From NCBI GenBank assembly GCA_003513005.1, contig DOTD01000092.1, positions 11,845-75,844 on the forward strand: 64,000 nt of DNA. The letters run 5' to 3'. The first letter of the stretch is position 1, and each line of letters starts with the position of its first letter. Below are positions 19,279 to 41,655 of this stretch, piece after piece. Source of the stretch: Desulfotomaculum sp. (lineage in GTDB: Bacteria; Bacillota; Desulfotomaculia; Desulfotomaculales; Nap2-2B). Under the pieces are notes generated by a model. That model worked only from the letters and a program-made list of their open reading frames with translations, was not told the origin of the DNA and did not search any database. The position numbers were made by a program, and so were the translations under genes.

Positions 19279-19604
19279 AATCTTGGGTTTTTGAACCTGT
19301 AAGAGCTAGAGGAATAATCTCACAAACCATATTGGAGCTTTGCAGGACGAAGGACAACGTTTTATTTATATCACCATTTTCAACATTTGCTGAAAGTGGT
19401 TATTTTAGTGATATCCATCTAATCTGCCCTTGTTTCCTGGCAGATAAAGAAGGACATATTTGGCAGGATAGAGAATTTTATGTTGATAATCATTTTTCCA
19501 AAGAGGATGATGCCATACGTTTAGCATTAAAGAGTTTGTTGTGCCCAAGGACAGTATCTTTGATCAGGCCAGGAGGGATTCAATCCTTGACCTGTCGGAT
19601 TTAA
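19260..19604 (+). CDS. Hypothetical ORF upstream of / overlapping the DUF499 gene
   Basis: A 114-aa ORF with no motif I recognise. It is AT-rich and overlaps the neighbours on both sides. Coding status is uncertain. Confidence 0.2.
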   Translation: MGFQQYKSWVFEPVRARGIISQTILELCRTKDNVLFISPFSTFAESGYFSDIHLICPCFLADKEGHIWQDREFYVDNHFSKEDDAIRLALKSLLCPRTVSLIRPGGIQSLTCRI

Positions 19605-22603: not shown

Positions 22604-23258
22604 CAGCCGGTATTCGACAGGCTTTGGTTTTAATCCGGAAGAATCAGGCCATCATTTCCTTGTCACAATCCATACGGCCAGGTCGTCACATGTTTACATC
22701 AGCGAACATTTTACCTGGGATCACAGTCAAAAAAGGCGGGATCTGAGTTTTACCCTGGGAAACGAGGACGACAAAATGCGGGTAATTTTACCCCGCAGCA
22801 AATGGCTGGACATTGCGGAACACGTGCAGGATGAATTCAACCGGCGGCTGAAAAAAAACGGTATTGCGGCGGGCCGCTGGAAAACAGGGCAGACTCCCGT
22901 ATCGCGGCTGCTGGGCAAGGAAATGACGCTGCTGGCCTGGGCTGTCGAAGACGCCGATCCGGCCCTAATCCCAGCTGCTGTCAAAAACTGGCTCGGCCTG
23001 GCCCCTGAAGAGCGCTGGTGGCTGTTCACCATGACCAACGCCGCAACCGGCCACGCGATCAACGGGCGGAACAAAGGCTGGAGAAAGGCCGTACGGTATG
23101 CCCTGACGGAGAACCCGGTCTCAGACGCCGAACCGGCTGAGCCGCGCCATGAGCTGTTGTTAATTATGAAAGAGACACTGTCCTGGGCCGGAGAACTTGA
23201 ATTAGTCCATCCCAGGAAGCAGGAAACGGACGCCGGCAATGAAAAAATCGTTTATTGA
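22596..23258 (+). CDS. DUF3780-like small protein of the DUF499/DUF1156 module
   Basis: 220 aa, overlapping both neighbours. Position and size match the DUF3780 component that I recall in this operon type. The family call rests on synteny plus a general resemblance. Confidence 0.6.
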   Translation: MGSSRYSTGFGFNPEESGHHFLVTIHTARSSHVYISEHFTWDHSQKRRDLSFTLGNEDDKMRVILPRSKWLDIAEHVQDEFNRRLKKNGIAAGRWKTGQTPVSRLLGKEMTLLAWAVEDADPALIPAAVKNWLGLAPEERWWLFTMTNAATGHAINGRNKGWRKAVRYALTENPVSDAEPAEPRHELLLIMKETLSWAGELELVHPRKQETDAGNEKIVY

Positions 23259-26142
23259 AACGCAGTTCCCCGTATCAAAGATTTCCAAAGAAAGCTACAA
23301 GGAACGGAAGGCCAATTACAGCCAGACACTTACCGGACTGGGCAAATGGTGGGGACGCAAGCCGCTGATTTTGGCGCGCGCCGCGATCATTGGGTTGTTG
23401 GTGCCGGCATCCGATAATCAGGTCAAAGACCGGGAAATTTTCCTCAAGATTCTCACGATGGATGAGGAAGGGCTCTGGCTGCGCAAAGATAAGCTGATTA
23501 CGCTTAAAGAAGTATATAAACGGCTTGATCAGACCCAAAGGGAGCGGTGGTTTAAAAAGACATCTACCGAAGACAAGCCGAAATTAAAAAAAGGGACGAC
23601 CAGAGAACAAAGGAAAGAACTGCAGCGGATTGTTTTTATGCCCCTGTCTTATGACGAAAAACTTCAGTACTGCAGACGCCCCGAACAGATTAAGGGGCCT
23701 TCCGGAAAAGCCTGGACGGAAATCAACACACACCTGAATACCGCCGCAAACAATCTGCAGGAACTTGTTAGCCAATTAGGAAAACGGCGGTTCGGCCATA
23801 CGCCGCGCGTCGGTGACGCCTTTTGCGGAGGCGGCAGCATTCCTTTCGAGGCCGCGCGACTCGGCTGCGAAGCTTACGGGTCGGACCTCAACCCGGTGGC
23901 GGCGTTGCTCACCTGGGCGGCGTTAAATATCATCGGCGGGGGCGAAATAATCGCCAAGCAGGTCCGCCAGGCGCAGCAGGAGGTTTATAATACTGTAGAT
24001 CAGCAAATCACTGCGTGGGGTATTGAGCACAACAAAGAGGGACACCGGGCGGACGCCTACCTATACTGCAATGAAGCTGTCTGCCCCGGATGCGGCTGGA
24101 AGGTTCCGCTGGCGCCTTCCTGGATTATCGGTGAAAAGACGCGCTGCGTGGCAAAATTAAAGCCTGACGAAACCGGCAAGCGGTTTGATATACTTATCGA
24201 ATCGGGGGTTTCAAATGAAGAAATGGAAAATGCAAGAGCGGCCGGCACCGTAAAAGATTCCGCTTTGTGCTGCCCCAACTGCCTTCCTCATGCCACTCCC
24301 ATGACCATGCTGCGCGGTGACGGACGTGGCGGGAAAGAACAGTATGGCCTGCGGATGTGGGAAAACTGGGATATCGTGCCCCGCCCGGAAGACGTTTTTC
24401 AGGAACGACTCTACTGCATCCGTTGGGTTTACACATGTGAAGACGAAGAGGGCAAAACTATAACTGAACGCTATTACAGCGCTCCCGACGAGGACGATCT
24501 GCGCCGGGAGGAACTTGTTCTGGAACTTTTACAGGAGCGCTTTGCCGAATGGCAGGAAAAAGGGTATATCCCAAGCCGCAGGATTGAGCCAGGATATAAT
24601 ACTGATCAACCTCTACGTGAACGCGGCTGGACACATTGGCATCACCTGTTTAACCACCGGCAATTATTACTAAATGCATTGTTAATAGATAATGCATTTA
24701 GTAACTTTACTACTGAAAATATTCTATTATCATTTTTATTTAGTATGGGAAGATGCTCAGATTGGAATAGTAAACTTTGCCGTTGGGATTCTAGCTCTGC
24801 AAATGAAAAAATGGCGCAAACTTTCTACAATCAAGCTTTAAATACATTATTTACATATGCCACAAGAAGCTTGTCGAGTTTTAAAAGTCCCTTTTTTCTA
24901 AATTGGTCCGTTAATATTTTTAATAACACAAGAGTTGTCTCAGCTAAAGATGCTCGCCAAAATGATCATTATTGTGATATCTGGTTAACTGACCCTCCAT
25001 ATGCCGATGCTATTAACTACCATGAACTGTCGGAATTTTTTATTGCCTGGTATGATAAACATATAAAAATATTTTTCCCTGAGTGGTACACAGACAGTAA
25101 ACGTGCGCTTGCCATCACCGGATCAGATGAGAATTTCCGCAAAAGTATGGTCGATTCATACCGCAACCTTGCCGAGCATATGCCGGTCGATGGGGCGCAG
25201 ATCGTTATGTTTACCCACCAGGATTCCGGAGTATGGGCGGATCTGGCATTAATTCTCTGGGCTGCCGGTTTGAGCGTAACAGCGGCCTGGTGCATAGCCA
25301 CCGAAACAGATTCCGCATTAAAAGAGGGCAATTATGTCCAGGGGACGGTGCTGCTGGTGCTGCGCAAGCAGACCTCCCTTGAAACGGCCTTTACTGATGA
25401 GATATACCCGCAGGTGGAAGAGGAAGTTAAGAACCAGTTAAATGAGATGCTGGCCCTGGAAGACCTGGAGGACCCCAATTTCAGCGACACCGATTACCAG
25501 CTTGCCGCTTACGCCGCCGCCCTGCGTGTTTTGACAAGGTACCGGAGCATAGAAGACATTGACGTGGCCGGGGAACTGGCCAGGCCCAGGCAGCGGGGCG
25601 AGCAGTCCCCTGTAGTGGACATTATCAACCGCGCTGTGGAAATTGCCTGCGATCACCTGGTTCCGAAGGGCATGGAGATATTCACTTGGAAAGGCCTTTC
25701 CCCGGAAGAAAGGTTCTACCTCAAGGGGCTTGAACTGGAGAGCCACGGGGAGCGCCGCTCAGGGGCTTACCAGGAGCTTGCCCGCGGTTTCGGGATCAGG
25801 GATTACCGTCAACTTCTGGAAGGCAGCCGGGCTAATCAGGCCAGGTTGAAAACAGCCTCCGAATTTGCCGCCAGGCAGTTGGAAAACACCGGTTTCGGCG
25901 CCACGCTTGTGCGCCAGGTTTTATTTGCCATCCGGGAGTCGGCGCACACGGGCGAAATTGCGCAAGGACGCAACTGGTTTTATAACGAACTTCAAGGCTT
26001 GTACTGGAATAAGCGCCAAACTATAATTCAAATCCTTCATTACCTAGCCGCGCTTGGATCTAACAAAAATATGCCCCACTGGCGGGATGACTCCAATGTG
26101 GCCAGGATTTTAGCGGGCGCGTTGAAAAATGACCATATTTAA
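23239..26142 (+). CDS. DUF1156 (COG1743-type) N6-adenine DNA methyltransferase with Zn-ribbon insertions
   Basis: The N-terminus is IETQFPVSKISKESYKERK...WWGRKPL. Motif I is DAFCGGGSIPFEAARLG. Cys pairs are CPGCG..CCPNC. Motif IV is DPPYADAINY. Confidence 0.85.
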   Translation: MKKSFIETQFPVSKISKESYKERKANYSQTLTGLGKWWGRKPLILARAAIIGLLVPASDNQVKDREIFLKILTMDEEGLWLRKDKLITLKEVYKRLDQTQRERWFKKTSTEDKPKLKKGTTREQRKELQRIVFMPLSYDEKLQYCRRPEQIKGPSGKAWTEINTHLNTAANNLQELVSQLGKRRFGHTPRVGDAFCGGGSIPFEAARLGCEAYGSDLNPVAALLTWAALNIIGGGEIIAKQVRQAQQEVYNTVDQQITAWGIEHNKEGHRADAYLYCNEAVCPGCGWKVPLAPSWIIGEKTRCVAKLKPDETGKRFDILIESGVSNEEMENARAAGTVKDSALCCPNCLPHATPMTMLRGDGRGGKEQYGLRMWENWDIVPRPEDVFQERLYCIRWVYTCEDEEGKTITERYYSAPDEDDLRREELVLELLQERFAEWQEKGYIPSRRIEPGYNTDQPLRERGWTHWHHLFNHRQLLLNALLIDNAFSNFTTENILLSFLFSMGRCSDWNSKLCRWDSSSANEKMAQTFYNQALNTLFTYATRSLSSFKSPFFLNWSVNIFNNTRVVSAKDARQNDHYCDIWLTDPPYADAINYHELSEFFIAWYDKHIKIFFPEWYTDSKRALAITGSDENFRKSMVDSYRNLAEHMPVDGAQIVMFTHQDSGVWADLALILWAAGLSVTAAWCIATETDSALKEGNYVQGTVLLVLRKQTSLETAFTDEIYPQVEEEVKNQLNEMLALEDLEDPNFSDTDYQLAAYAAALRVLTRYRSIEDIDVAGELARPRQRGEQSPVVDIINRAVEIACDHLVPKGMEIFTWKGLSPEERFYLKGLELESHGERRSGAYQELARGFGIRDYRQLLEGSRANQARLKTASEFAARQLENTGFGATLVRQVLFAIRESAHTGEIAQGRNWFYNELQGLYWNKRQTIIQILHYLAALGSNKNMPHWRDDSNVARILAGALKNDHI

Positions 26143-26213
26143 AATTATAAATCTGTAATAAAGCAATTTATCATGCTATCTAACTAACCAATCAAAGTAA
26201 CGAGGTAAGCGAC

Positions 26214-28895
26214 TTGATTAACCGATTTTCCTCAAGGCGGCAAAAACTGGATTATTCTTTCCTAAAAGGCCGGTTGACCGGCGCGCAGGCATACGACCGC
26301 ATAGCTGGCTATTTTCGTTCCTCTATGCTGGAAGTAGCCGGTGAGGCTTTGGAAACTGTCACCGGGCCTGTGCAGGTGGTCTGCAACTCCGATTTGGAAC
26401 TGCGGGATGTAGAAACAGCCAGGGCCGCCCAGTATGCCATGAGGCGTGAGTGGTGCGAAGCAGAGCCGGAGAAATACGGCCCGGCCTCCCAGCCGCGGCT
26501 TTCCAAATTATTTGAATTGCTGTATTCCGGAAAGCTTCAGATCCGGGTTATGCCGCGTGAAAAATTCGGCTTGATACACGGTAAGGCCGGAGTCATCACA
26601 CTGAGTGACGGACGCAGGACTTCTTTTATCGGGAGCGCTAACGAAACATACAGCGCCTGGAAAATGAATTATGAAATCATCTGGGAAGACGATTCCGCAG
26701 AAGCGGTCAAATGGGTACAGGAGGAGTTCGACGCGCTCTGGAACAGCCCCTTCGCGATATCTCTATCCGACTTTATAATCCAGGACATCGGCCGGCTGGC
26801 GCGCCGCGTGGTAATTCCCAGCGTTGAAGACTGGCGGCGGGAGCCGGATCCATCAATGACTGTTATCGAAACTCCTGTTTACCGCCGGGAAAACGGCCTG
26901 TGGGAACACCAAAAATATTTTGTACAGCATGCATTTGAAGCGCACAAAAGGAACGGCGCCAGGCTTGTCCTGGCTGATATGGTAGGTTTGGGGAAAACTG
27001 TACAGCTGGCGCTGGCAGCCCAGTTAATGGCTCTTTACGGAAGCAGGCCTGTGCTCATCCTGGCGCCTAAAACACTGCTCCTGCAATGGCAGGATGAGAT
27101 GAAAAACCTGCTTGATATGCCGTCCGCCGTGTGGAACGGCAAGCAATGGATAGACGAAAACGGGATTGAATACCCGGTTATGGGTCCCGAGGGGATAAGC
27201 AAGTGCCCAAGAAGAATTGGCGTGGTATCAACGGGACTTATCATCAGCAAATCAGAAGTCGCCGAGTTACTTAAACAGATTAACTATGAGTGTATAATCG
27301 TGGATGAGGCGCACCGTGCGCACCGTAACAACCTGGGACCGGGCAAAGAGGCTGAAAAACCAGAACGCAATCATTTGTTGGACTTTCTAGATCAGGTGGC
27401 TGCCCATACGAAAAGCATGTTACTGGCCACGGCGACTCCGGTACAGAAAGACCCGGTAGAGGCGTGGGACCTTCTGGATGTGCTTTCCCGCGGAAACGAG
27501 GAAGTCTTCGGCGCTCGTTTCAGCAACTGGAGAAGGCCAGGCGAAGCGTTAGACCTTGTATTGGGGTCTATGGAACTGCCCGAAGATGATTTTGATCGCT
27601 GGAGCTGGATAAGAAACCCGCTGCCTCAAGCATCGGAAGAGCGTGATTTTGGATTGATCCGCCGCTCACTGCGCATGGCGGACAGTGATAATGTAGCGCC
27701 GTCCGAAGCGTGGCATACGATGAGCGAAGCTGATCGCAGCAGGATAAGACGGCTTTCCAGGTCTTTCGTACAACGGTACAATCCTTTTATCCGCCATATC
27801 GTCATGCGAACCAGGGATTTTTTAGAAAACACCATCGACCCTGAAACTGGCGAACCGTATTTAAAAAGAGTAAAGGTAGAGCTTTTTGGAGAAAAAGAGA
27901 AAGAAGCCGTCCGCCTGACCCCTTATTTAAAAGAAGCATATGAACTGGCCGGGGAATTTTGCAGACTGCTTGCGGCACGTTTAAAAACAGCCGGTTTTCT
28001 TAAAACTCTTTTACTCAAGAGAGTGGGCAGCACAATCTACGCGGGAAAATTGACGGCCGAAAAAATGTTAAGAGACTGGCAATATGTAGTTAAAGAGGAT
28101 AATGAAGAAGATGAACAGGTTCCTGATATTAACGACATAAAAACCCTGACACAGGAAGAAAGGGAAGTTCTCCAAAGATTTGTACAAGCCTTAAGCGCGG
28201 AAGAGCGGGATCCCAAGTATGAAGTTATTCTTGACTGCTTGACGGAAAAAGGCTGGCTGGAACAGGGCTGCATTATTTTCTCACAGTACTACGACTCCAT
28301 TTTTTGGCTGGCTGAAAACTTATCAAAGGAATTGCCTGAAGAAAATATCGGCATATACGCCGGCGACGAGAGGTCCTCTATAATAAAGAACGGCTGTATG
28401 GTTAGGGCGGCCAGGGATGAACTTAAAAGGCTGGTTTCCAAAGGTTCGTTAAGATTATTACTGGGAACAGATGCGGCAAGCGAAGGAATCAATTTGCAGC
28501 GTTTGGGCACGTTGATTAATCTCGACCTTCCCTGGAACCCGACCCGGTTGGAGCAGCGCAAAGGAAGGATCCAGCGGATCGGTCAAACAAGAGACACTGT
28601 TTTAATATATAACCTCAGGTACAAGGACTCTGTAGAAGACCGTGCCCATGAACTGCTTTCTGATCGCATGGAAGAAATCTTCAGGCTGTTTGGGCAAATC
28701 CCGGACGTATTGGAGGATACCTGGGTGTACCTGGCTTTGGGAGAAATCGAACAGGCCAAAAAGACAATCGACTCTATTCAAAAAAAGCATCCGTTTGACA
28801 TCAAATATAACCAGATAGAAAAGGTTCCCTGGGAATCCTGCGAACGTGTGCTAGACTCCGCAGACCGCCGCAAATACCTGACCCAGGGATGGTAA
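26214..28895 (+). CDS. PLD-like nuclease domain fused to an SNF2-family helicase
   Basis: N-terminal HKD-like LIHGKAGV...FIGSANET. Helicase motifs GLGKT, DEAH (IIVDEAHRAH), TATP and QRKGRIQRIGQ. A TTG start follows GAGGT. Confidence 0.85.
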   Translation: MINRFSSRRQKLDYSFLKGRLTGAQAYDRIAGYFRSSMLEVAGEALETVTGPVQVVCNSDLELRDVETARAAQYAMRREWCEAEPEKYGPASQPRLSKLFELLYSGKLQIRVMPREKFGLIHGKAGVITLSDGRRTSFIGSANETYSAWKMNYEIIWEDDSAEAVKWVQEEFDALWNSPFAISLSDFIIQDIGRLARRVVIPSVEDWRREPDPSMTVIETPVYRRENGLWEHQKYFVQHAFEAHKRNGARLVLADMVGLGKTVQLALAAQLMALYGSRPVLILAPKTLLLQWQDEMKNLLDMPSAVWNGKQWIDENGIEYPVMGPEGISKCPRRIGVVSTGLIISKSEVAELLKQINYECIIVDEAHRAHRNNLGPGKEAEKPERNHLLDFLDQVAAHTKSMLLATATPVQKDPVEAWDLLDVLSRGNEEVFGARFSNWRRPGEALDLVLGSMELPEDDFDRWSWIRNPLPQASEERDFGLIRRSLRMADSDNVAPSEAWHTMSEADRSRIRRLSRSFVQRYNPFIRHIVMRTRDFLENTIDPETGEPYLKRVKVELFGEKEKEAVRLTPYLKEAYELAGEFCRLLAARLKTAGFLKTLLLKRVGSTIYAGKLTAEKMLRDWQYVVKEDNEEDEQVPDINDIKTLTQEEREVLQRFVQALSAEERDPKYEVILDCLTEKGWLEQGCIIFSQYYDSIFWLAENLSKELPEENIGIYAGDERSSIIKNGCMVRAARDELKRLVSKGSLRLLLGTDAASEGINLQRLGTLINLDLPWNPTRLEQRKGRIQRIGQTRDTVLIYNLRYKDSVEDRAHELLSDRMEEIFRLFGQIPDVLEDTWVYLALGEIEQAKKTIDSIQKKHPFDIKYNQIEKVPWESCERVLDSADRRKYLTQGW

Positions 28896-29091
28896 TCCTT
28901 GCCTTTTTCCTTGCTTATTTGCCCACCCAACCTGTAATATAATAATAAAGAGTAAAATTCTTGTAATCATAAAACAGGAAATTTTTTTATATTTGTCGTA
29001 TTATATAGAAAAACAAATGAAAAACAATCATTTATAAATTTACGTAACAACCACAGCCCAAGAATTTTAAAGATTTAAGAGGCGCAGTTTT

Positions 29092-30108
29092 TTGGGTACT
29101 TTTAACGAGCTACATTTTGAAAATGAATTCTATTTTCAATGGCACATAACAGAAAGGTGCAACCTCAGGTGTAAACACTGTTATCATAATAATTATGACT
29201 CTGAAGGCGAATTAAGTTCGGAGGAACTTTTATCGGTTTTAGACATATTAGATAGCACAGCCACCAAGTGGGGCAAGCTCGCTACACTGTCAATAACCGG
29301 CGGAGAGCCGCTTCTACGGTTAAATGAAATTAAACAGATAGCAGACAAAATAGTATCAAAAAAACACATTTATTATTTTGACCTCCTTACAAATGGAACC
29401 CTATTAGATAAGGACACTCTTTCCTTCCTGTCAAAGTCGAAAAAGTTGCGCAGGGTGCAGCTTTCCCTTGAAGGGCCTAACTCTACAAAAAATGACGACA
29501 TTCGTGGCCATGGAAACTTCGAAAAAATCCTATCTGCTATAGCATCCCTTAGAGAATATCAAATACCAATCTGTATCATGGTTACACTTACTCGTGACAA
29601 TTGGGAGGACATTCCAGGAATAGTTAAATTGGCTGTAGATTATGGTGTTAATTATCTTAGCTTTGAAAGATTTATCCCTGAAGGTAAAGGAAAACAAGTC
29701 AAAGAAAAAATATTAAGCCGGAATGAGCTGAAATCAGCCAACCAGTTAATTGCCAGATTATCGCAAGAAGAAAATCGTGTAAAATTTTTAACTTACCGTC
29801 CTCTTTTTGCTCTTTGCGGCGACGCTTTCGGTGCCATGTGTTCTATTGGTACAAATGCTCTTACCATTATGCATGACGGTACTGTATACCCTTGCCGGCG
29901 CTTACCGATACCATTGGGTAACATTCTAAGTGACGGACTGTATAAAATATGGTATGGTTCTGATTTATTATGGGAAATCCGCAATTCCCGCAACCTGAAG
30001 GGTAAGTGCAACAATTGCGAATTGCTGCCTGTTTGCCGTGGTTGCCGTGCAGCGGCTTATTATCTAAACGGAGATTACCTTGCGGAGGACCCTCAATGTT
30101 GGAAATAA
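29092..30108 (+). CDS. Radical SAM / SPASM-domain peptide-modifying enzyme
   Basis: CNLRCKHC (CxxxCxxC) near the N-terminus. The C-terminal SPASM-type Cys cluster is ..CSIGTNALTIMHDGTVYPCRRL..CNNCELLPVCRGCRAAAY..DPQCWK. First gene of the AT-rich island. Confidence 0.85.
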   Translation: MGTFNELHFENEFYFQWHITERCNLRCKHCYHNNYDSEGELSSEELLSVLDILDSTATKWGKLATLSITGGEPLLRLNEIKQIADKIVSKKHIYYFDLLTNGTLLDKDTLSFLSKSKKLRRVQLSLEGPNSTKNDDIRGHGNFEKILSAIASLREYQIPICIMVTLTRDNWEDIPGIVKLAVDYGVNYLSFERFIPEGKGKQVKEKILSRNELKSANQLIARLSQEENRVKFLTYRPLFALCGDAFGAMCSIGTNALTIMHDGTVYPCRRLPIPLGNILSDGLYKIWYGSDLLWEIRNSRNLKGKCNNCELLPVCRGCRAAAYYLNGDYLAEDPQCWK

Positions 30109-30392
30109 AACCACAGTCAAAGTTCAAACTAAACGAAGATTTTATCTTACACCAAATAGAGGAACTAGATAAATACTGGCTTTTCAATATTGTTAATGGT
30201 GACATCTTTAACCTTAATGATGTCTCCATGTTTATTTTACAAAAGATAAGTGAAGGAAATAACTTTGAATCATTGGTTTTTAAACTGCTTCAACAATTTG
30301 ACGTTGATGAAAACAGGGCACAAAATGATCTTCAAAAAATATTACGGCAGTTATTTCATGAAAAAATTATTAGCCAAATAAAGGAGGATTAA
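30096..30392 (+). CDS. PqqD-family peptide chaperone (RiPP recognition element)
   Basis: The 98-aa protein starts at the internal ATG 30096 and overlaps the rSAM stop. ..FILHQIEELDKYWLFNIVNGDIFNLNDVSMFILQKI.. fits the PqqD/RRE pattern. Confidence 0.7.
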   Translation: MLEIKPQSKFKLNEDFILHQIEELDKYWLFNIVNGDIFNLNDVSMFILQKISEGNNFESLVFKLLQQFDVDENRAQNDLQKILRQLFHEKIISQIKED

Positions 30393-30394
30393 CC

Positions 30395-30526
30395 ATGGTT
30401 AAAAAGCCCTATAAGGAACCAGTTTTGGAAAAGCAGGAATCTATGCGCATTGCAGAAGAAACTATTGAAAAAGCCACGGGAAAACTTATCTGCAAACAAT
30501 GCTCATCCTGTCATGGTTGCAGATAA
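30395..30526 (+). CDS. Unannotated 43-aa Cys-rich precursor-like peptide
   Basis: It is not in the ORF track because it is shorter than 60 aa. The ATG lies 2 nt after the PqqD stop and AAGGAGG is 7 nt upstream. Translation: MVKKPYKEPVLEKQESMRIAEETIEKATGKLICKQCSSCHGCR*. Confidence 0.6.
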   Translation: MVKKPYKEPVLEKQESMRIAEETIEKATGKLICKQCSSCHGCR

Positions 30527-30570
30527 TTTCTGATTACTGTTTATTTGTTTTTTGCCTAGGGGGTTGAGAA

Positions 30571-33459
30571 ATGATTATTGATCGTAAAGAACTAACTGAT
30601 CTAGATTTTGAAACCTTGAATATTATTTATGATATTTTTATTGATGATGAGAATTACCAAAATATAGATGTAAAATGCAATGATCGTGATATTTTAGCTG
30701 ACTTTAACGAACTAGAAGATACCAACCAACATGGGTTGGTTATTCAAAAACTCCGAAATTATGAAAAGTGTTCATTAAAAATAGATGATAAAGCTATATC
30801 TAATCATGCCACTACTTTTTGGAAACATCTTTTTTTAGCTAAGAAAACACGTGCCATTTTACAAAGCATTGGAACCAATGAGGCTTCTAAACTTATAGAT
30901 GAAATTGCTGAATATTTACTTTCGAAATTACCTGATATATACGAGCAAGATTTTGGCATTATTAAATGCAAAGAAGAACCCCAAGATTTTGGACAGAAAA
31001 AATTTCTTATTCTCTTCTATAATGAAATTAGCCAGTGTTGTTCTGGGTATCTGAATACTGGTTATGCTGAGAAATCCTTAAAGTACTATCCTGAAGAAGC
31101 CTGTCATTATGAATTACTTGGGTTATATAATAAAGCTCTTGGGTTGTCACATCACGAGAATAAAGAGAGCAGGGAAAATGCATTAAAACATTATGATGAA
31201 ATAATAAATACTTTTAAAATAAAAAAGGAGGGAGAAAAATATCTTGGGTACGGATATGATTTCGATACAGATTTATGGAAGATGTATGTTTATTTACCAG
31301 CAATATATCATAAGGCTGAAGTACTAATTAAACTACAAAGAGGAAAAGAAAGCATAGATATACTCAATACTTTTATAAAGAAATATAAGAATTATAATGT
31401 TCCTAGATTTATTTTTTTATCAACCGAGTATAAAATAATAGACAGTATGATACTAAAGGTTCATGCGATGCTTGAAAGCTCTAATTTAAATGTTAATGAA
31501 GAAATAAAAAATATAGAAATAATGCTTGAAACACATAAAGAAAATTATGATATCCAGAGGAAATATAATTTCTTAATAGCCAAGCTTAATATTGAGGACA
31601 CAAGAGAAAATCTAAGTAGTAAAAAAAACGAAGAAATATATAAATTTCTTAAAGAAACTATATATAATAATTTATTTAAAGAAGAAAGAAATGAAGATGA
31701 AAGAACACAAGCTTCATTTTATTGGCTAGAAGCATTTCAGTTATACATAAAAGCATCAAAAAATAAAAATCATGAAAAAGGAAAGGATCTATTAGAGGAT
31801 TTATTAGGTACTTTAATAGATATCTTAAATTATATTTTTGAGAGACTCAAACAAGACCCATGGATTCCAAACAAAGAGAAGATTCTAAAACTAATAGTGG
31901 AAATATTCGAAGAAATAAATGATGATGACAGTATTACAAATGATGATTGTCGCCAAAAAATTAAAGATATAGAGATAAGATATTGTCATAGACTTACTCA
32001 CAAAGAAAACAAACCCTCCAGTTATCAAAAAGTCAAATCAGTTCGAAGGCTATTATTATTAGGCGAGAATAACAAAGAGGCTGAAATGGATTATAATTTT
32101 CCCGATAGACTTGAAATAGTTAAGGACTTTGCAAATATTATTATTAATAAGGATTATTATACTCAATGTTTGCGATACAATACTGAAAAATTTGACAAAA
32201 ATTTAATATATAGTAGCTATTGGCCACAACTCACTGGGCGTTATGCATTTACAGTATTGCGAAAATGGCAGTCTTTTACACCAGCTCTTGGGAGTTACTC
32301 AACTAGTAGTAGAGGTGGAGGTTATTTTGTTTACAAAGTAGGTGACAATGGTAATATAGAAGATGGGGTAGTTGTTGATCCCGGTTATGATTTTATCGAA
32401 AATTTTATTGAGCATAACTTTTCCATAAAGGATATTACTGCAATTGCCATAACACATTCACACATAGATCATTCTGTTGATTTTCGCGGCCTTATGACAC
32501 TAATTCATGAGATGAACAAAAGAGGAGTCAGAAAATTATATAAATGGCCTCCCAAAAAAGTAACAGTGATACTAACACCATCGTGTTTCGATCATTTTTT
32601 TCAGATAATATCAGACAGCCGCGATTATATCAAGGATGTTATAGTTGTTGATCCTGATAGACACAATCTAGTTGAAACTGAATTATATGAAATTGGAAAT
32701 GAGAAGATACATTTCTATCTAAGCGCGGTTCCTGCGTATCATAAAGATTTACAAGAAAATGCCAATTGCGTAGGTTTAATACTAAGGGATAATAATGATA
32801 ACAAAATAATTGGTTTTACAGGTGATACTGTTTGGACTCACAGCCTATACAAGCGATTAAAAGATTGCTCAGTTATCTGTGCTAATATGGGAGCCCTTAT
32901 TGATGTAAATAAAGGAGACAGTTTTGAAAAAACATTTGATCAGAAAGATAAGGAGCATAAAAAGATCAAAAAGCTTATATATAAGGAGAATCATCTTTAT
33001 CTCCCAGGAATAATCACTTTATTAGATGAAATCCAAAAAACAAGTAAAACAAAAATAACTGTAGTAGGAGAACTCGGTGAAGAACTAAAATCTGGCTTAA
33101 GAAAAGATTTATTTCATAAATTTAATCAGTTTATAGATGAAAGGACTAGTAATCAATATGGAGGCAACTATCCATATAAATGGCAACGTGAAATATTATA
33201 TCCTTATCCACTTGTTGCAATTGAAGATATTAATCTAACAATTACATGGGAGACACAAAGTGCTGAGCCATATATAAGATGTACACGTTGCAAGAGAATA
33301 ATTCCACCAGACAAAGTAATGCTTCGCGTAACAAATGACGATCGAAAAAGTGAACAATTATTCTATTATTGTAAAGAATGTCTTGAATTAATAGAGTCAT
33401 TGGAAAGCGGAGTGGAAAGAGAATGGGAGAAGCGTTATTTACCGCCACATCAAGTCTGA
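30571..33459 (+). CDS. 962-aa protein: long K/E/N-rich helical N-terminal region + metallo-beta-lactamase fold + C-terminal Zn ribbon
   Basis: HxHxDH motif AITHSHIDHS at ~aa 625, followed by GDTVW and ENHLY-type ligand regions. The C-terminus is CTRCKR...YYCKEC. I recognise nothing in the N-terminal ~560 aa. Confidence 0.7.
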   Translation: MIIDRKELTDLDFETLNIIYDIFIDDENYQNIDVKCNDRDILADFNELEDTNQHGLVIQKLRNYEKCSLKIDDKAISNHATTFWKHLFLAKKTRAILQSIGTNEASKLIDEIAEYLLSKLPDIYEQDFGIIKCKEEPQDFGQKKFLILFYNEISQCCSGYLNTGYAEKSLKYYPEEACHYELLGLYNKALGLSHHENKESRENALKHYDEIINTFKIKKEGEKYLGYGYDFDTDLWKMYVYLPAIYHKAEVLIKLQRGKESIDILNTFIKKYKNYNVPRFIFLSTEYKIIDSMILKVHAMLESSNLNVNEEIKNIEIMLETHKENYDIQRKYNFLIAKLNIEDTRENLSSKKNEEIYKFLKETIYNNLFKEERNEDERTQASFYWLEAFQLYIKASKNKNHEKGKDLLEDLLGTLIDILNYIFERLKQDPWIPNKEKILKLIVEIFEEINDDDSITNDDCRQKIKDIEIRYCHRLTHKENKPSSYQKVKSVRRLLLLGENNKEAEMDYNFPDRLEIVKDFANIIINKDYYTQCLRYNTEKFDKNLIYSSYWPQLTGRYAFTVLRKWQSFTPALGSYSTSSRGGGYFVYKVGDNGNIEDGVVVDPGYDFIENFIEHNFSIKDITAIAITHSHIDHSVDFRGLMTLIHEMNKRGVRKLYKWPPKKVTVILTPSCFDHFFQIISDSRDYIKDVIVVDPDRHNLVETELYEIGNEKIHFYLSAVPAYHKDLQENANCVGLILRDNNDNKIIGFTGDTVWTHSLYKRLKDCSVICANMGALIDVNKGDSFEKTFDQKDKEHKKIKKLIYKENHLYLPGIITLLDEIQKTSKTKITVVGELGEELKSGLRKDLFHKFNQFIDERTSNQYGGNYPYKWQREILYPYPLVAIEDINLTITWETQSAEPYIRCTRCKRIIPPDKVMLRVTNDDRKSEQLFYYCKECLELIESLESGVEREWEKRYLPPHQV

Positions 33460-34241
33460 CTTCGATGTTAAAGACAGGATTAGACAAAAAAATTGATCCT
33501 GAAAGAATAGCTAGGGTAGGAACAGTATTATTAGAAGAAATACCAGTCACTGAGAACACAATTTTTACTAATATAGCTGACTATATAGTAAATAGACAGT
33601 CAGTAGATGGCGGATGGGTTGATGTTGAAGAAACGGCCTGGTCAATAGCATATTTACGAAAAATATCTGGAGAATATGAAGGCCCTTTTAATAAAGGGCT
33701 TAACTGGTTGGCTGAACAAAGAATATCCGGGGCGGGATGGGGAAGGAATAACCGAGATACGCCAAGGATACCATATACCTCATGGGTTGCCATACTGTGC
33801 CCGGAACTTATAGATAAAGAAGTATTAAAATGGTTGGAAAAAACCTGTAATGATGAGATAAAGCTAGAACCAAGACTGACTTATAAAATAGCCCTGCCAA
33901 TTTTGGCTTTTAGCAAGCATAAATATTCAACTCAAAATCCGGAGTTAGTTAATTCTTTAATTTCTTTTCTTATTTCCTCCCAAAATGACGACGGCGGCTT
34001 TGCCCCCTGGCGTGATCATCCGTGCGGCAGTGACCCCTGGTGTACTTCAGTTGCGGCGTTGGGACTGTTGGCACATGCGGATAGGGTCCCAGAAGTTATT
34101 TTTGAAAACTCATTGAACTGGTTACTAAAAAACCAGCTCCCTAACGGAATGTGGCCCTATCATTACATTGATGAGGGAACAGCTTTAGCTTATTGGGCGT
34201 TAAAAGAAATGCTAATTCATTTCAAGAGAAAAGAACATTAA
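33423..34241 (+). CDS. Prenyltransferase-beta / terpene-cyclase-like alpha-alpha toroid repeat protein
   Basis: Four QW-like repeats: QSVDGGW, EQRISGAGWG, SQNDDGGF, NQLPNGMW. A Cys pair HPCGSDPWC is also present. The start is uncertain (33423 or 33465). Confidence 0.6.
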   Translation: MGEALFTATSSLTSMLKTGLDKKIDPERIARVGTVLLEEIPVTENTIFTNIADYIVNRQSVDGGWVDVEETAWSIAYLRKISGEYEGPFNKGLNWLAEQRISGAGWGRNNRDTPRIPYTSWVAILCPELIDKEVLKWLEKTCNDEIKLEPRLTYKIALPILAFSKHKYSTQNPELVNSLISFLISSQNDDGGFAPWRDHPCGSDPWCTSVAALGLLAHADRVPEVIFENSLNWLLKNQLPNGMWPYHYIDEGTALAYWALKEMLIHFKRKEH

Positions 34242-34242
34242 T

Positions 34243-36000
34243 ATGTGTGGTATTTGTGGGGTTTACGGCAGCAACGATCTAAAAAAGATAGAACTGATGA
34301 CCTCAACCATAGCCAACCGCGGACCAGACGCAAGCTTTGTAAAAATAATTGGGGGCAAACATACACTTGGAAGCGCAAGGCTTCATATTACTGGTCAATT
34401 AGATGCTCCTTTTCCTTATTGCCGCGACGAAATTGGGCCTCAAGTACTATTAAACGGCGAAATCTATAATTATCGCTTTTGGCAAAAAAAACTTGAAGAC
34501 GAAGGTTATACTTTCTTTACTGGTACTGATACCGAAGTCATCTGGGCAATGTACCATAAATACGGGTTGGAATTTGTCAATAAAATAAAAGGAATGTTTG
34601 CCATTGCAATTCTTGACGGCGACAGGCTTATTTTGGTTAGAGACAGGTTTGGAATAAAACCGCTCTTTTATTGCCAGAGAGGAAATGAGCTTGCTTTTGC
34701 TTCAGAAATAAAAGCATTGTTAAGATGGACCGACCGTCAACCCCATTTAAACGAATCAGCTTTGCAAGAGATTTTAACTTTTGGTTATATTTATTCTTCG
34801 GATGAAACGCTTTTTGTTGGAATAAAGCAGGTTACCCCCGGAGAAGTTCTAATTTTTGATGGAAATGAAATTTGTTCCGAAAACTATTCTGTCCCGCCAA
34901 CCGCTTTTTCTTCTCCGGGCACAAATGAAGACTATTACTTCCATAAAACACTGCTTTCTAATACCTTACCTGCCGCTATGAGGTTGGTTACTGAACATGG
35001 CGCTCATGAAGTCGGCGTTTATCTTTCAGGCGGCGTAGATTCATCTTTAATGGCTGTGCTTTGTAAAGAAATACACGGGAAAATTAAAACTTTCCATCTT
35101 ACGGACAGCCATCATGCACCGGACCTGCCCTGGTCCAGGGATGTTGCAAAGGCAATAAATAGCGATCATTATGAAATACCTGTTACTTTGCAGGATTATC
35201 TAGCTGAACTGCCAAAATTCGTCTACCATTATGAAAATATTGTTGCCGGCGGTGTTTTTGACTTGCAGGGTGGTGTGGCTTTTCATCTACTTTGCAAAAA
35301 AGCCTCCCAGCATGTCAAGGTTGCCTTAACAGGAGAGGGCGCAGATGAACTCTTCGGCGGATATTATTGGACATACACACACCCGCTTGGTTTCGCCGAC
35401 CGTTTGCGTATACGCCTGAAAGAAGCTGTAAAGAACGTTCCGAATGATAAACTGGCTATATTGGTGAACCAGCTTTTCCCGCTTCCCGAGGACGAATTAC
35501 AGTATCGCTTAAATATTTTCAATGCATTATTAAAAAGCGCATTATCAAATTATCATCTCTGGAGTGTCGACCGTTCATCAGGCGCTTTTGGTTTTGAAAT
35601 CCGACCATTTTATTTGTATGAGGATATAGTAAAACTGGCTGGTGATATGCCGGTAGAATACAAAGCCCCAAAACCCGGCGTCACAAAGCTGCTGTTAAAA
35701 GACGCTGCAATGAATTTTTTTGCCCGTTATGGCCTGGAAGCTATTTGTAACAGAAAGAAATTTGGCATGCCTGCTGCGCTTAATCAACTCGACAATCAAG
35801 TAAGGATTTTTATTAACAACAATGTTAGCGACGCTTATGTTCAACGTCACTATTACAAACAATACCTGACGAACAAAATTGATATATTTATGTTCGATTT
35901 ATTTTTTTACTTTTACTTTCATAAAAACGGAAATTTTGAACCGGCTTTCTGCCTGGAGGAAGCCTTGGCAGGTGGTCTATTTGAAAATATGTATAGTTAG
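34243..36000 (+). CDS. Asparagine synthetase B-like glutamine amidotransferase / adenylating enzyme
   Basis: MCGICG N-terminal nucleophile Cys2 (class II GATase) and SGGVDSS PP-loop. Confidence 0.85.
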   Translation: MCGICGVYGSNDLKKIELMTSTIANRGPDASFVKIIGGKHTLGSARLHITGQLDAPFPYCRDEIGPQVLLNGEIYNYRFWQKKLEDEGYTFFTGTDTEVIWAMYHKYGLEFVNKIKGMFAIAILDGDRLILVRDRFGIKPLFYCQRGNELAFASEIKALLRWTDRQPHLNESALQEILTFGYIYSSDETLFVGIKQVTPGEVLIFDGNEICSENYSVPPTAFSSPGTNEDYYFHKTLLSNTLPAAMRLVTEHGAHEVGVYLSGGVDSSLMAVLCKEIHGKIKTFHLTDSHHAPDLPWSRDVAKAINSDHYEIPVTLQDYLAELPKFVYHYENIVAGGVFDLQGGVAFHLLCKKASQHVKVALTGEGADELFGGYYWTYTHPLGFADRLRIRLKEAVKNVPNDKLAILVNQLFPLPEDELQYRLNIFNALLKSALSNYHLWSVDRSSGAFGFEIRPFYLYEDIVKLAGDMPVEYKAPKPGVTKLLLKDAAMNFFARYGLEAICNRKKFGMPAALNQLDNQVRIFINNNVSDAYVQRHYYKQYLTNKIDIFMFDLFFYFYFHKNGNFEPAFCLEEALAGGLFENMYS

Positions 36001-37048
36001 TAAATTCCCGCCAATTCAGGGAGGTATAGCTTCTAAAACATATTGGCTTGCCCGTGGTTTGGCTGAGGCAGGCCTGGAAGTTCACGTAGTAACCAATGCC
36101 TTGGCTGTTGAAGATGATTATAAGATTGGATCCTGCGGGAAAGATTTTCTTTTACCGGAAGGAATATTCATTCACAATATAGAACAAGAAACACCCTGGC
36201 ATATCCCGTATTCAAAACTTTTTCAAGAAAAATTGCTTAACAAATTACTGGGTGTATGTAACCAATACAAAATAGATCTTATCGACAGCCATTACCTTAT
36301 TCCCTATGGAATAGCCGCTTTTTTGGCAGGCACAATTACCGGGATACCGTATATTGTCCGGCATGGAGGCAGTGATTTAGCCAAATTTTGGGACAAAGGA
36401 CTATTAAACGAGCTGTTGAAAAGAACACTTTCAAACGCATCCGCTATAGTAACTGACAAAACAGACTTGGGCATTCTTAACAACAACTTGGTCAATCTTC
36501 CCCGTTATGTCCCGGATGAACGTTACTTTCATCCGGAAGCCAAAGAAGAAAATCAGATTAGCTTTGCATATATCGGCAAAATAAATTATTATTGGCAGCA
36601 TAAGGGTCTTGACAGAATTCTAAGTTATTGGGACGGATTTTCATTTGATTCAAGCCTGTTTTTCTTAGCCCAAGGGAAAGGCAAAGCTGATTTTTTAGCT
36701 CAATATAAGCCGGATAAAGTAAAATTTCTAGATTTTATTCCTCCCTGGAAAATGCCGTCCTTCCTACAAAAGATTGATTTTCTATTTCATTTAGTTAATG
36801 ATAATCCTATCCCCGATTTTTCTAACATTGTTGTTGAAGCAGTCGCCTGCGGTGCTAAAATTTTAACGGATAATCCATCTGCATTTATTTGTTATGAGGA
36901 ATATTTTGATGTTAATAAATATGTTTTGTCCGTAGATAATTTTAGTATTAATCACAATATAACTAAGGCTGAACAGCCTTTAAAAATTAAATATGCCACA
37001 TATATTAAACAAAATATCGAGCTTTACCGGAAAGCCTGCGCGCTATAA
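35981..37048 (+). CDS. GT-B fold glycosyltransferase (GT4-like)
   Basis: I prefer the TTG at 35981, which gives MKICIVSKFPPIQGGIASKTYWLARGL. This is a typical GT4 N-terminus. It overlaps the AsnB-like stop. Confidence 0.7.
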   Translation: MKICIVSKFPPIQGGIASKTYWLARGLAEAGLEVHVVTNALAVEDDYKIGSCGKDFLLPEGIFIHNIEQETPWHIPYSKLFQEKLLNKLLGVCNQYKIDLIDSHYLIPYGIAAFLAGTITGIPYIVRHGGSDLAKFWDKGLLNELLKRTLSNASAIVTDKTDLGILNNNLVNLPRYVPDERYFHPEAKEENQISFAYIGKINYYWQHKGLDRILSYWDGFSFDSSLFFLAQGKGKADFLAQYKPDKVKFLDFIPPWKMPSFLQKIDFLFHLVNDNPIPDFSNIVVEAVACGAKILTDNPSAFICYEEYFDVNKYVLSVDNFSINHNITKAEQPLKIKYATYIKQNIELYRKACAL

Positions 37049-38642: not shown

Positions 38643-39260
38643 CTATTTCCCCTGCACATTAGCGTCATAATCAAGCGAGGGGAATGACATCGCCCTGGCT
38701 AAAACGAAAGCCGCCTGAAGAGCTTCTGTCGGGCAAAGCGGGAAGCATTCCTTGCAATCCCAGCATACCTTGGAAGCTATCTCCGGAATAAAACTGATCT
38801 CCCGTTTTGTCCCTCTGTTGATAAAGCCGATGGCGAACTCCTTTTTAATCTCGGCGCAGTACCTGACACAAAGGCCGCAGTGAATGCAGAATGACGGTTC
38901 TTTTTCGAAACGGTTCCTGTCCGCCCCGTACTCTTTGGCCAAATCCACCAGTTCAAACGCGTCCGGAGCATGAGCCAGCAGCAGTTCGATGATTGTTTTA
39001 CGGATCCTGTCTATCTTCTCGGACCTGGTTTTGACGACCAGATTATTCTCTACCGGGTAAACGCAGGAAACAACCAGCCTCCACCAGCCGCGCTGTTCTA
39101 TTTCTACTACACAGAGACGGCAGGCCCCATAAGGCTCCATCCTCTCGTCATAACACAAGGTGGGAATATGTATCCCGGCGCTTCTTGCCGCTTCCAGGAC
39201 AGTCATATCTTTTTTGGCCTTTACTTCTTTTCCGTCAATCGTTAAGACTATATCACTCAT
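38643..39260 (-). CDS. 2Fe-2S + 4Fe-4S ferredoxin-type subunit (NuoG N-terminal / HndD-N-like)
   Basis: I prefer the start MSDIVLTIDGKEV at 39260, which forms an ATGA overlap with the upstream stop. ..TLCYDERMEPYGACRLCVVE.. is the plant-type 2Fe-2S motif, followed by CIHCGLCVRYC. Confidence 0.8.
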   Translation of the reverse strand: MSDIVLTIDGKEVKAKKDMTVLEAARSAGIHIPTLCYDERMEPYGACRLCVVEIEQRGWWRLVVSCVYPVENNLVVKTRSEKIDRIRKTIIELLLAHAPDAFELVDLAKEYGADRNRFEKEPSFCIHCGLCVRYCAEIKKEFAIGFINRGTKREISFIPEIASKVCWDCKECFPLCPTEALQAAFVLARAMSFPSLDYDANVQGK

Positions 39261-41193: not shown

Positions 41194-41202
41194 AATTTCA
41201 CC

Positions 41203-41655
41203 CTAATCATAATTTTTTAGCGCGTCTGCTATCTTGGCAGGCGCCATTTTGCCGTAGACCTTACCGTCGACTTCCATCACCGGCCCTAATGCGCAGCAAC
41301 CAAGACAGTTAACGGTTTCCAGACTGAACTTCAAATCCAGGTCTGTTTCGCCGGGGTTAAGTCCGGTTATGTCCTGTACGGTGTCGAGAATACGCGATGC
41401 GCCACGGACATGACAGGCAGTACCCAGACAAATGTGAACCCCGTGGCGCCCTTTGGGAACTACGCTGAAAGCTTTGTAGAAGGTAGCTATATGCTGTATC
41501 CTGGTTAAAGGAACCTGCAATCTCTCGGCTACTCTGTCCAACGCTTCTTTGGGAAGCCAGTTGTTTGCGCCCTGAATGTCCAGTAGAACTTGAATTAGGG
41601 AACTGGCCTCACAATTATGTTTATCAATAATTTGATCTACTTTATCCATATCCAT
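41203..41655 (-). CDS. NuoE-like thioredoxin-fold 2Fe-2S subunit
   Basis: ..HICLGTACHVRG...VNCLGCCALGP.. provides the four-Cys NuoE/HndA pattern. Confidence 0.85.
   Translation of the reverse strand: MDMDKVDQIIDKHNCEASSLIQVLLDIQGANNWLPKEALDRVAERLQVPLTRIQHIATFYKAFSVVPKGRHGVHICLGTACHVRGASRILDTVQDITGLNPGETDLDLKFSLETVNCLGCCALGPVMEVDGKVYGKMAPAKIADALKNYD

Follow-up and report, generated by a model that had tools for sequence, protein, structure and literature searches.

Introduction

Radical S-adenosylmethionine (rSAM) enzymes with a SPASM domain mature several families of peptides that are made by ribosomes and modified after translation (RiPPs). Precursors of the SCIFF/ranthipeptide type have 40-50 amino acids (aa) and a conserved Cys-rich C-terminus, with six Cys in SCIFF, and are encoded beside an rSAM/SPASM maturase that, in SCIFF systems, carries its RiPP recognition element (RRE) as an N-terminal fusion. 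In the mycofactocin and PQQ pathways a stand-alone PqqD-type RRE accompanies the rSAM/SPASM enzyme, and the functional residues of the precursor (Val-Tyr or Glu/Tyr) are invariant and, in MftA, C-terminal; the mycofactocin cluster also contains a glycosyltransferase, and its product is intracellular. Lasso peptide pathways combine a leader with a YxxPxL motif, a stand-alone PqqD-like (B1-like) RRE, an asparagine-synthetase-family enzyme and a transglutaminase-like protease (B2). Phages, for their part, mimic components of host immune systems, as do pseudo-ToxI, an antitoxin RNA carried by phage PhiTE, and the Dmd protein of T4. Here we describe a 43-aa open reading frame (ORF) at positions 30395-30526 of a 64,000-nucleotide stretch (the window) of Desulfotomaculum sp. 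contig DOTD01000092.1 (assembly GCA_003513005.1, positions 11,845 to 75,844, forward strand), which had been proposed from the letters of the DNA to encode a Cys-rich RiPP precursor (hereafter the original prediction). By sequence comparison, this peptide represents a new and broad family, physically tied to one rSAM/SPASM clade and a stand-alone PqqD-like RRE, and copies of its gene are also found on phage contigs.

Results and discussion

A 43-aa ORF under purifying selection follows rSAM/SPASM and PqqD-like genes

The peptide gene, its signals and the two genes preceding it are as follows.

29092-30108, + strand: rSAM/SPASM enzyme of 338 aa, predicted peptide maturase (Pfam Radical_SAM E=2e-25, SPASM E=2e-10)
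30096-30392, + strand: stand-alone PqqD-like RRE of 98 aa, its start overlapping the rSAM stop (Pfam PqqD E=2e-11)
30382-30387, + strand: Shine-Dalgarno sequence AGGAGG, read from the sequence, 7 nt before the ATG and inside the PqqD gene, at its 3' end
30395-30526, + strand: predicted precursor peptide gene, 43 aa plus TAA stop (from translation, conservation and homologues)
30410-30427, + strand: leader motif Y6-K-E-P9-V-L11 (YxxPxL), predicted RRE-binding site
30491-30523, + strand: near-invariant core CKQCSSCHGCR (aa 33-43), which forms the extreme C-terminus in every case

The ORF translates as MVKKPYKEPVLEKQESMRIAEETIEKATGKLICKQCSSCHGCR, followed by TAA, exactly as given in the original prediction. 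Its other readings of the sequence also held, namely a ribosome-binding site at good spacing (the AGGAGG above), a position between PqqD-like and metallo-β-lactamase (MBL) genes (the PqqD-like ORF stops at 30392, 2 nt before the peptide ATG, and a 962-aa MBL-fold ORF starts at 30571) and a C-terminus with Gly-Lys ahead of four Cys spaced CxxCxxCxxC (GKLI-C-KQ-C-SS-C-HG-C-R). Its description of the ORF as hidden is right for the length-filtered ORF track and wrong for the JGI and Logan gene callers, which annotate the 43-aa gene on identical and related contigs. Since the 14 kb around the gene contain 119 ORFs of 30 aa or more, its size alone is meaningless and the case for it depends on comparative evidence. 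A promoter/terminator scan around the gene gave counts near the shuffled expectation and no attenuator hairpin 3' of it.

Compared with the closest strain (locus L006, rSAM enzyme 95% identical), the peptide gene carried 13 synonymous and two non-synonymous differences, corresponding to a ratio of non-synonymous to synonymous substitution rates (dN/dS) of 0.02. A protein search with the peptide retrieved two close relatives, P0001 (91%) and P0002 (83%). Loci with 95, 77, 65, 55 and 54% rSAM identity belonged to Bacillota, Desulfobacterota and 'Candidatus Aquicultor', and all rSAM-retrieved relatives examined had, after the rSAM-PqqD pair, a 42-48-aa ORF ending C[KR]QCS[SG]CHGC[S]R. Because a pattern-based search would make any invariance of the core circular, 80 metagenome loci were picked by rSAM similarity alone. 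In this unbiased set, 22 of the 25 loci with rSAM identity of at least 42% and 500 nt or more of DNA downstream contained the peptide gene, 190-340 nt from the rSAM stop, and none of the loci at 41% identity or below had the peptide motif; the family thus ends sharply at about 42% rSAM identity. The three exceptions encode sister peptides, either ...LSITCSKCHHCR directly before the stop and right after the rSAM gene, or YEKPxF...WCFGCTNCNCN before the stop and after the PqqD gene. The ORF is insignificant alone; judged by comparison, the gene is genuine and strongly constrained by purifying selection, because its dN/dS is low and its position is conserved in relatives. Both the selection analysis and the search for a small ORF beside homologous rSAM genes had been suggested as checks in the original prediction, and both came out in its favour (dN/dS 0.02 against L006; 22 of 25 unbiased loci).

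Two sister rSAM families (39-45% identity; L187, L192, L203; L195-L197, L199) were seen to have small peptides of their own. One peptide, ending ...KLSITCSKCHHCR, lies immediately 3' of the rSAM gene without a PqqD gene, and the other, YEKPxF...WCFGCTNCNCN, is followed by an amidohydrolase-like gene. Neither sister peptide family was present in NCBIfam or in the literature searched.

In the predicted maturase, the CX3CX2C motif (C23, C27, C30) and the seven SPASM Cys (C250, C268, C306, C309, C315, C318, C336) were invariant across 26 homologues. Its nearest PDB sequences were SkfB, CteB, anSME and PqqE, and its best NCBIfam model was TIGR04340 (ACGX rSAM; 188.2 bits, cutoff 400). The 98-aa PqqD-like gene was called in all related loci and best matched the NCBIfam lasso peptide PqqD chaperones NF033530 and NF033536 (E ~5e-9, below cutoff). 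The locus combines both Cys motifs of an rSAM/SPASM enzyme, an RRE with a conserved leader motif and a precursor co-located with its maturase, as rSAM/SPASM RiPP systems do, and synteny with rSAM and PqqD genes is kept across phyla. The peptide is very probably the precursor of the adjacent rSAM/RRE pair; synteny, the SPASM Cys and the YxxPxL leader support the original assignment of a leader plus Cys core to a SPASM maturase with a stand-alone RRE.

A widespread family with a fixed core and a variable leader

The motif C[KR]QCSxCHGC, turned into a degenerate DNA pattern and run on one-genome-per-species contigs and on IMG/VR viral contigs, matched 93 and 58 stretches, respectively. About 20 of the genome matches were due to chance and lay inside long GC-rich ORFs, the remainder being 40-60-aa ORFs ending ...CHGCR; some 44 of the 73 genome loci found in this way had an rSAM gene immediately upstream or cassette parts (see below) downstream. 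A single-sequence phmmer search of 1.84 billion representative proteins returned 73 clusters at E<=1e-3, all of 40-85 aa and with alignments reaching the C-termini. The family comprises at least 73 clusters at 50% identity and occurs in Bacillota, Desulfobacterota, Chloroflexota, Actinomycetota, Bacteroidota and others. No model in Pfam, NCBIfam or PHROGs was matched by the peptide or by several subtype peptides, full-text literature searches with core strings and combinations of cassette gene names gave nothing relevant, and a compendium of rSAM RiPPs (PMC10288494) contains no mention of such a cluster.

In the unbiased loci the core read C-[KRVL]-Q-C-[SA]-[SG]-C-H-[GSA]-C-[RK]-stop, with no variation at the four Cys, the Gln and the His, and the peptide ended one residue, rarely two, beyond the last Cys. 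Of 120 distinct genes, 116 had Arg at core position 11, which like the stop was outside the search pattern, and every core position used all synonymous codons (123 distinct genes). The leader is Lys-rich, followed by Y-x-[KR]-P-x-hydrophobic and usually x-K-x-x-x-M-x-F-[PM]; nearly every one of the ~120 distinct members had the motif in the form Y-x-[KRT]-P-x-hydrophobic. Leaders were otherwise variable between lineages (median pairwise identity 0.38), whereas the core scarcely varied. YxxPxL is the motif through which PqqD-like RREs bind lasso-peptide leaders (PMC10368454) and has recently been shown to be common to other RiPP families too (PMC13381572). By analogy with described pathways, a conserved core behind a variable leader is the reverse of what typical antibiotic RiPPs display and recalls SCIFF, MftA and PqqA.

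The relative P0001 is named 'cytochrome c2' by a JGI pipeline, presumably from its CSSCH (CxxCH) motif. A c-type cytochrome was considered and rejected, as the peptide carries CSSCH but has no export signal and matched no Pfam or NCBIfam cytochrome model; the 43-aa sequence has no hydrophobic N-terminal segment (maximum Kyte-Doolittle value, KD19, -0.02).

The peptide gene belongs to a seven-gene cassette with exchangeable parts

In the window, the rSAM, PqqD and peptide genes are followed by four further cassette genes: a 962-aa MBL protein, an α/α toroid, an asparagine-synthetase-type enzyme (AsnB) and a family 4 glycosyltransferase (GT4).

30571-33459, + strand: 962-aa protein with a tetratricopeptide repeat (TPR)-like and an MBL part (Pfam Lactamase_B_2, AlphaFold2 model, Foldseek)
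31128-31990, + strand: hypervariable stretch in the TPR-like region of the 962-aa protein (54-69% nucleotide identity to L006)
33423-34241, + strand: 272-aa single-domain α/α toroid resembling squalene-hopene cyclase (SHC) and class II terpene cyclases (profile against PDB)
34243-36000, + strand: glutamine-dependent amidotransferase of the asparagine synthetase type (AsnB), 585 aa, N-terminal MCGICG (NCBIfam TIGR01536)
~35972-37048, + strand: GT4-family glycosyltransferase, ~358 aa (Pfam Glyco_trans_4_4 E=7.5e-12; start as called on the identical contig L247)

The AlphaFold2 model of the 962-aa protein (predicted local distance difference test, pLDDT, 69; nine sequences) showed helical repeats over about 500 aa, then an MBL domain and, at the C-terminus, a zinc ribbon. 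The MBL domain (~aa 555-880) was RNase Z/Apyc1-like and carried HxHxDH at 629-634, with H629, H631, D633 and H634 invariant among homologues. Foldseek matched this part to RNase Z, Apyc1 (an anti-Pycsar phosphodiesterase), ZipD and RNase J (E 1e-7 to 1e-4) and the N-terminal part weakly to TPR superhelices. Nucleotide identity between the window and L006 was 93-97% over the rSAM, PqqD, AsnB and GT genes and 54-69% in the hypervariable stretch, and in more distant pairs the MBL protein was always the most diverged cassette protein. The large TPR-like/MBL partner looks like an effector rather than a tailoring enzyme. Four independent metagenome contigs with rSAM, PqqD and peptide genes (L001-L004) were seen to stop 44-125 bp past the peptide stop, consistent with assembly breaks because the next gene starts hypervariable.

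A profile of the toroid (17 homologues) matched SHC in PDB at E=7.5e-19 and also the small SHC-like cyclases 8pak/8paj, with faint Pfam matches to SQHop_cyclase and Prenyltrans. AsnB passed TIGR01536 (292.6 bits, cutoff 267.1), kept the N-terminal catalytic Cys and failed the lasso cyclase model (96 bits, cutoff 525). The nearest PDB sequences to the GT4 protein were, weakly, BshA-type enzymes (E ~1e-4).

Clustering of ORFs over 146 loci defined the cassette variants. Constant in all complete cassettes were the rSAM, PqqD, peptide and toroid genes only; AsnB and GT4 genes were usual. Six cassettes (L075, L097, L101, L106, L136, L151) had a DNA N6/N4 methyltransferase gene (Pfam N6_N4_Mtase) between the peptide and MBL genes. 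In other variants the MBL protein was swapped for a ~580-aa protein (c9) with invariant H..HD..HD motifs, AsnB was reduced to a 270-aa PP-loop half, or a second rSAM gene and an AAA_33 kinase gene were present. The c9 substitute matched nothing in Pfam or among PDB sequences, so that 'HD-like' here refers to the invariant motifs only. No transporter or leader protease gene was found in any cassette variant, and no membrane-spanning or signal-like segment (KD above 1.5) in the seven cassette proteins. With no membrane-bound cassette protein and no exporter, the product would be expected to act inside the cell, and we consider an intracellular, non-antibiotic role probable.

The cassette forms an AT-rich island beside candidate defence genes

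The cassette has a GC content of 30-41%, against 48-50% in its flanks, the drop being sharp over 29000-37000. Directly upstream (19541-28895, + strand) lies a four-gene candidate defence system encoding a DUF499 ATPase, a DUF3780 protein, a DUF1156 methyltransferase and a phospholipase D (PLD)-SNF2 helicase, which match the PADLOC models DUF499, DUF3780, DUF1156_MTase and PLD_Helicase (E down to 1e-298). Neighbours of the cassette in other lineages included DUF1156-SIR2-SMC-DUF499, GmrSD, HEPN/nucleotidyltransferase and ParE/Phd pairs, Mrr-nSTAND3 and, in another lineage, an Eco29kI restriction-modification pair with a Mu-type transposase. L001/L008 and the Actinomycetota locus L140 likewise had differently arranged DUF1156/DUF499 systems flanking the cassette. 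Within the cassette, the PqqD, MBL, toroid, AsnB and GT proteins had no match in PADLOC-DB v2, and the rSAM enzyme showed a generic pVip-rSAM similarity only (70 bits).

Phage contigs carry orphan copies under purifying selection

Including L005, found via P0002, the peptide was present in 59 viral loci (58 of them IMG/VR contigs), on none of which tblastn detected rSAM, PqqD, toroid or GT genes. In 27 of the 59 the peptide gene stood in the packaging/head module, co-oriented with genes for TerS, TerL, portal or major head protein (confirmed with PHROGs). These phages form a diverse set, their TerL proteins falling into at least three unrelated clusters, and are represented by uncultured viral contigs only, since a tblastn search of 50,697 GenBank phage records gave no true match.

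Both the leader motif and the core were retained in the phage copies, and over its whole length the peptide gave a ratio of non-synonymous to synonymous polymorphism (pN/pS) of 0.05-0.12; phage pairs whose leaders differ by indels (aa identity <0.4) were misaligned and left out of this calculation. For the Bacteroidales-type phage copies L051, L059 and L063, pS was 0.55-0.99, near saturation, and pN 0.04-0.07. The L051 copy and the cassette peptides of two Bacteroidales metagenome-assembled genomes (L125/L130) were 94-96% identical in DNA and 100% identical in protein, and the peptide gene of phage L016 was 93% identical in DNA to that of cassette L106. Eleven of 44 distinct phage leaders were at least 70% identical to some sampled cassette leader, a threshold above the 95th percentile of identity between cassette leaders (0.67). 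The leader subtype of the window, M-R-I-A-E-E-T-I-E-x-A-T-G-K-L, also occurred in phages L005 and L054. In the 316-kb jumbo phage L073 (IMGVR_UViG_3300037067_008064), a PP-loop AsnB half is encoded directly upstream of the peptide gene, which ties AsnB functionally to the peptide. Together, the phage orphans suggest that phages and hosts contend over, or share, the peptide.

One way in which they might contend is that the matured peptide blocks phage replication inside the cell and the orphans act as decoys, competing for the RRE and rSAM enzyme. The defence-island context of the cassette and the match of phage leaders to host leader subtypes would fit such decoys, and anti-phage lanthipeptides (bioRxiv 10.1101/2024.06.26.600839) offer a precedent. 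A decoy would need the leader alone, however, yet the phage core is as strict as the host core and the low pN/pS extends over the whole peptide; an identical core would just yield more of the anti-phage product. We regard this explanation as very unlikely.

The L073 peptide was longer than the others, with an extra Cys-rich insertion ahead of the invariant core (...QCQDCKTELCYRECIHFAALGCRQCSSCHGCR), and a similar extended peptide was noted in L071. Immediately downstream of the orphan peptide gene in L040, L056, L057, L065, L111 and L154 we observed a gene for a ~110-aa ParB/sulfiredoxin-like DGxHR protein (c14, phrog_17560), and in a candidate phyla radiation (CPR) locus, L137, a protein weakly similar to c14 follows the peptide (3698-4387). 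Proteins c14 and c2111 shared a DGxHR-centred local match only, and a weak one (E=0.09).

Cellular orphans in CPR bacteria and DPANN archaea

At about 27 genome loci the peptide was encoded without a maturase gene in the retrieved DNA (at most 8 kb), mostly in CPR bacteria and DPANN archaea. Synteny on the chromosome was conserved in both groups: the DPANN orphans (L074, L082, L107, L126, L153, L155) had a divergent TrmB-family regulator and a Trp-tRNA ligase nearby, and the CPR orphans L127, L137 and L138 adjoined gltX on contigs of 360-560 kb. These CPR and DPANN copies are not obviously prophages; some other 'cellular' orphans were phage-like, namely L111 (portal, c14) and L128 (TerL).

Orphans in such numbers, ~27 cellular and 59 viral loci with no maturase nearby, raise the alternative of an unmodified, tiny Cys4/His metal-binding module (Zn, Fe-S or haem via CxxCH), of which the cassette would be a secondary user or modifier. 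The original prediction had found the regular Cys spacing reminiscent of metal or Fe-S ligands, a reading on which the comparisons are neutral. The DPANN synteny with the TrmB-family regulator, the CPR position next to gltX, and C-S-S-C-H as a CxxCH motif with its 'cytochrome c2' label on P0001 would all suit a module of this kind. However, the orphans retain YxxPxL, which has no obvious role lacking an RRE; no signal peptide for c-type cytochrome maturation is present; a distant maturase is possible, given loci of at most 8 kb; and L111 and L128, counted as cellular, are phage-like. An unmodified module is, in our estimate, quite improbable.

Genes for small P-loop kinases (AAA_33/AAA_18-like, 130-200 aa) were noticed beside CPR/DPANN orphan peptides and in the cassette variant with a second rSAM gene (L074, L079, L091, L138, L146, L155, L163; L098, L141, L145, L164). 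These kinases may be an extra tailoring enzyme acting, for example, on the conserved Ser.

Relation to described RiPP pathways

The locus shares with SCIFF/ranthipeptide systems the length of the peptide, its conserved Cys-rich C-terminus and its place beside a SPASM rSAM enzyme, to which CteB is near. It differs in the number and pattern of Cys and in having a separate PqqD gene instead of a fused RRE; SCIFF clusters, unlike the cassette, also lack toroid, AsnB, GT and MBL genes, and phage copies are not known for them. Membership of SCIFF/ScfB was rejected, as the peptide belonged to 0 NCBIfam families and has four Cys only, and the rSAM enzyme scored 72.9 bits with 'not_ScfB' (cutoff 855); with SCIFF/ScfB models unmatched, the original description of the locus as not a textbook SCIFF stands. 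With the ACGX-repeat system it shares the best curated rSAM model, aligned over its full length (protein 12-338, model 2-339). Membership was rejected, the score of 188.2 bits lying below the cutoff (400) and the peptide having CxxC spacing and a single terminal core and no ACGX repeat.

The YxxPxL leader, the stand-alone B1-like RRE and the asparagine-synthetase-family enzyme are shared with lasso pathways, which differ in their B2 protease, absent here, while an rSAM enzyme is the central maturase of the cassette. A lasso pathway was rejected because no variant encodes a protease, the lasso cyclase model gave 96 bits against 525 and the core offers no acidic residue for an isopeptide ring. 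By analogy, the cassette functions in the manner of an rSAM/SPASM RiPP pathway whose leader/RRE pair is lasso-style and whose core is conserved like those of SCIFF and mycofactocin.

Mycofactocin and PQQ share with the cassette the pairing of a PqqD-type RRE with a SPASM rSAM enzyme and invariant functional residues in the precursor, and mycofactocin also the glycosyltransferase and, as predicted here, an intracellular product. They differ in their Val-Tyr or Glu/Tyr core, against Cys/His here, and in that the cassette is island-like among defence genes. Mycofactocin membership was rejected (TIGR03962, 123.3 bits against 265; peptide ending in CHGCR, not ...GVY), and the PqqE model gave the rSAM enzyme 106 bits (cutoff 381). 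We know of no phage-borne precursor copies for mycofactocin or PQQ.

The logic of these two pathways underlies a further alternative, a peptide-derived cofactor. The C-terminal residues would be excised and elaborated by the rSAM enzyme, hydrolase, amidotransferase and glycosyltransferase to a small redox- or metal-active molecule, and phage copies would be auxiliary metabolic genes topping up a precursor that is consumed one-for-one. An invariant core at the exact C-terminus behind a variable leader, as in MftA, is what such a cofactor would call for, and the PqqD RRE, SPASM rSAM enzyme and glycosyltransferase parallel MftB, MftC and MftF; the 123-bit match of the mycofactocin rSAM model, the lack of an exporter in the cassette and the purifying selection on both leader and core in phages also agree with it. 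Against this, the mycofactocin and PQQ models all scored below cutoff, no dehydrogenase or other oxidoreductase partner accompanies the cassette, and a patchy AT-rich island among defence genes is unlike a housekeeping cofactor locus. The large partner, moreover, is hypervariable, TPR/RNase Z-like and exchangeable for an HD-like protein, and is not a peptidase, and CPR/DPANN orphans would be useless without the pathway. A cofactor of this kind appears unlikely to us.

Proposed maturation and role

The explanation that we favour, joining maturation of the peptide, control of an intracellular effector and supply of the precursor by phages, is probable as a whole. The PqqD-like RRE would bind the leader via YxxPxL and present the undecapeptide C-x-Q-C-S-S-C-H-G-C-R to the SPASM enzyme, which would carry out Cys-centred chemistry, the thioether cross-links of sacti- and ranthipeptides being the closest precedent by sequence. 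The AsnB-type enzyme would then adenylate the C-terminus and amidate or ligate it; that AsnB acts on the peptide is suggested because the core, always ending one residue past the last Cys, is without Asp and Glu, so that the C-terminus is its only invariant carboxylate. GT4 and the terpene-cyclase-like toroid might add or shape further groups.

The cassette itself would be a horizontally mobile AT-rich island among defence genes, carrying a TPR-like/RNase Z-like nuclease or its HD-like substitute, and the matured peptide would be a regulator or cofactor of this nuclease effector. In the simplest form, it would be a short-lived 'antidote' whose loss during infection frees the nuclease, and phages would bring leader-matched, core-identical orphans from which the host enzymes keep producing matured peptide. 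The phage copies are read as antidote because a decoy needs no core and a phage would not supply a signal. Pseudo-ToxI and Dmd offer a parallel, being likewise phage copies of a small, labile part of a host system without its enzymes or effectors; they differ in that an RNA or protein antitoxin needs no maturation, whereas the phage peptide would need the RiPP enzymes of the host.

A defence/counter-defence logic with phage mimics is possible in our view, somewhat short of probable. The fuller proposal of a RiPP-based intracellular immune or addiction module with a hypervariable TPR-nuclease, whose precursor is counterfeited by phages (possibly also by CPR/DPANN episymbionts), is tentative and must be called rather doubtful.

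Several points weigh against the favoured explanation. No cassette protein matches a PADLOC model beyond the generic rSAM similarity, and the neighbourhood, although it bears a defence-island signature, does so on a basis of about seven independent neighbourhoods. Confidence in the structural model of the 962-aa protein is moderate (pLDDT 69, nine sequences), the substrate of the toroid and GT could be something else than the peptide, and the reaction ascribed to the rSAM enzyme is guessed from distant relatives, its NCBIfam matches lying far below cutoff. We infer the pairing of phages with hosts from peptide similarity only, and the antidote model leaves the chromosomal CPR/DPANN orphans, with no maturase within 8 kb, unexplained. 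A consumable precursor carried as a phage auxiliary gene is equally sensible under the cofactor model, which makes that model a serious rival.

The near-invariant core, the lack of an exporter and the putative nuclease partner speak less for a secreted antibiotic than for a regulatory, cofactor or immune role inside the cell. If the immune-module proposal is true, the phage copies would be the first parasite-encoded RiPP precursor reliant on host maturases; they are the part likely to surprise specialists, as an unreported virus-host interplay. The CPR/DPANN orphans, if real, would extend the question to cell-cell parasitism. With neither a curated model nor a paper on it, the family is also a clean target for new radical-SAM chemistry on a Cys/His-rich motif.

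Flanking genes of the island

No tRNA gene was found in the window. Upstream of the island, a 550-aa transposase-like ORF was observed at 17183-18835 (- strand). The end of the island is marked by an energy-metabolism cluster at 38643-45265 (- strand), an ordinary one that has no bearing on the peptide finding and encodes HdrA-like, MvhD/FlpD-like, NuoE/F-like and ferredoxin-type Fe-S proteins.

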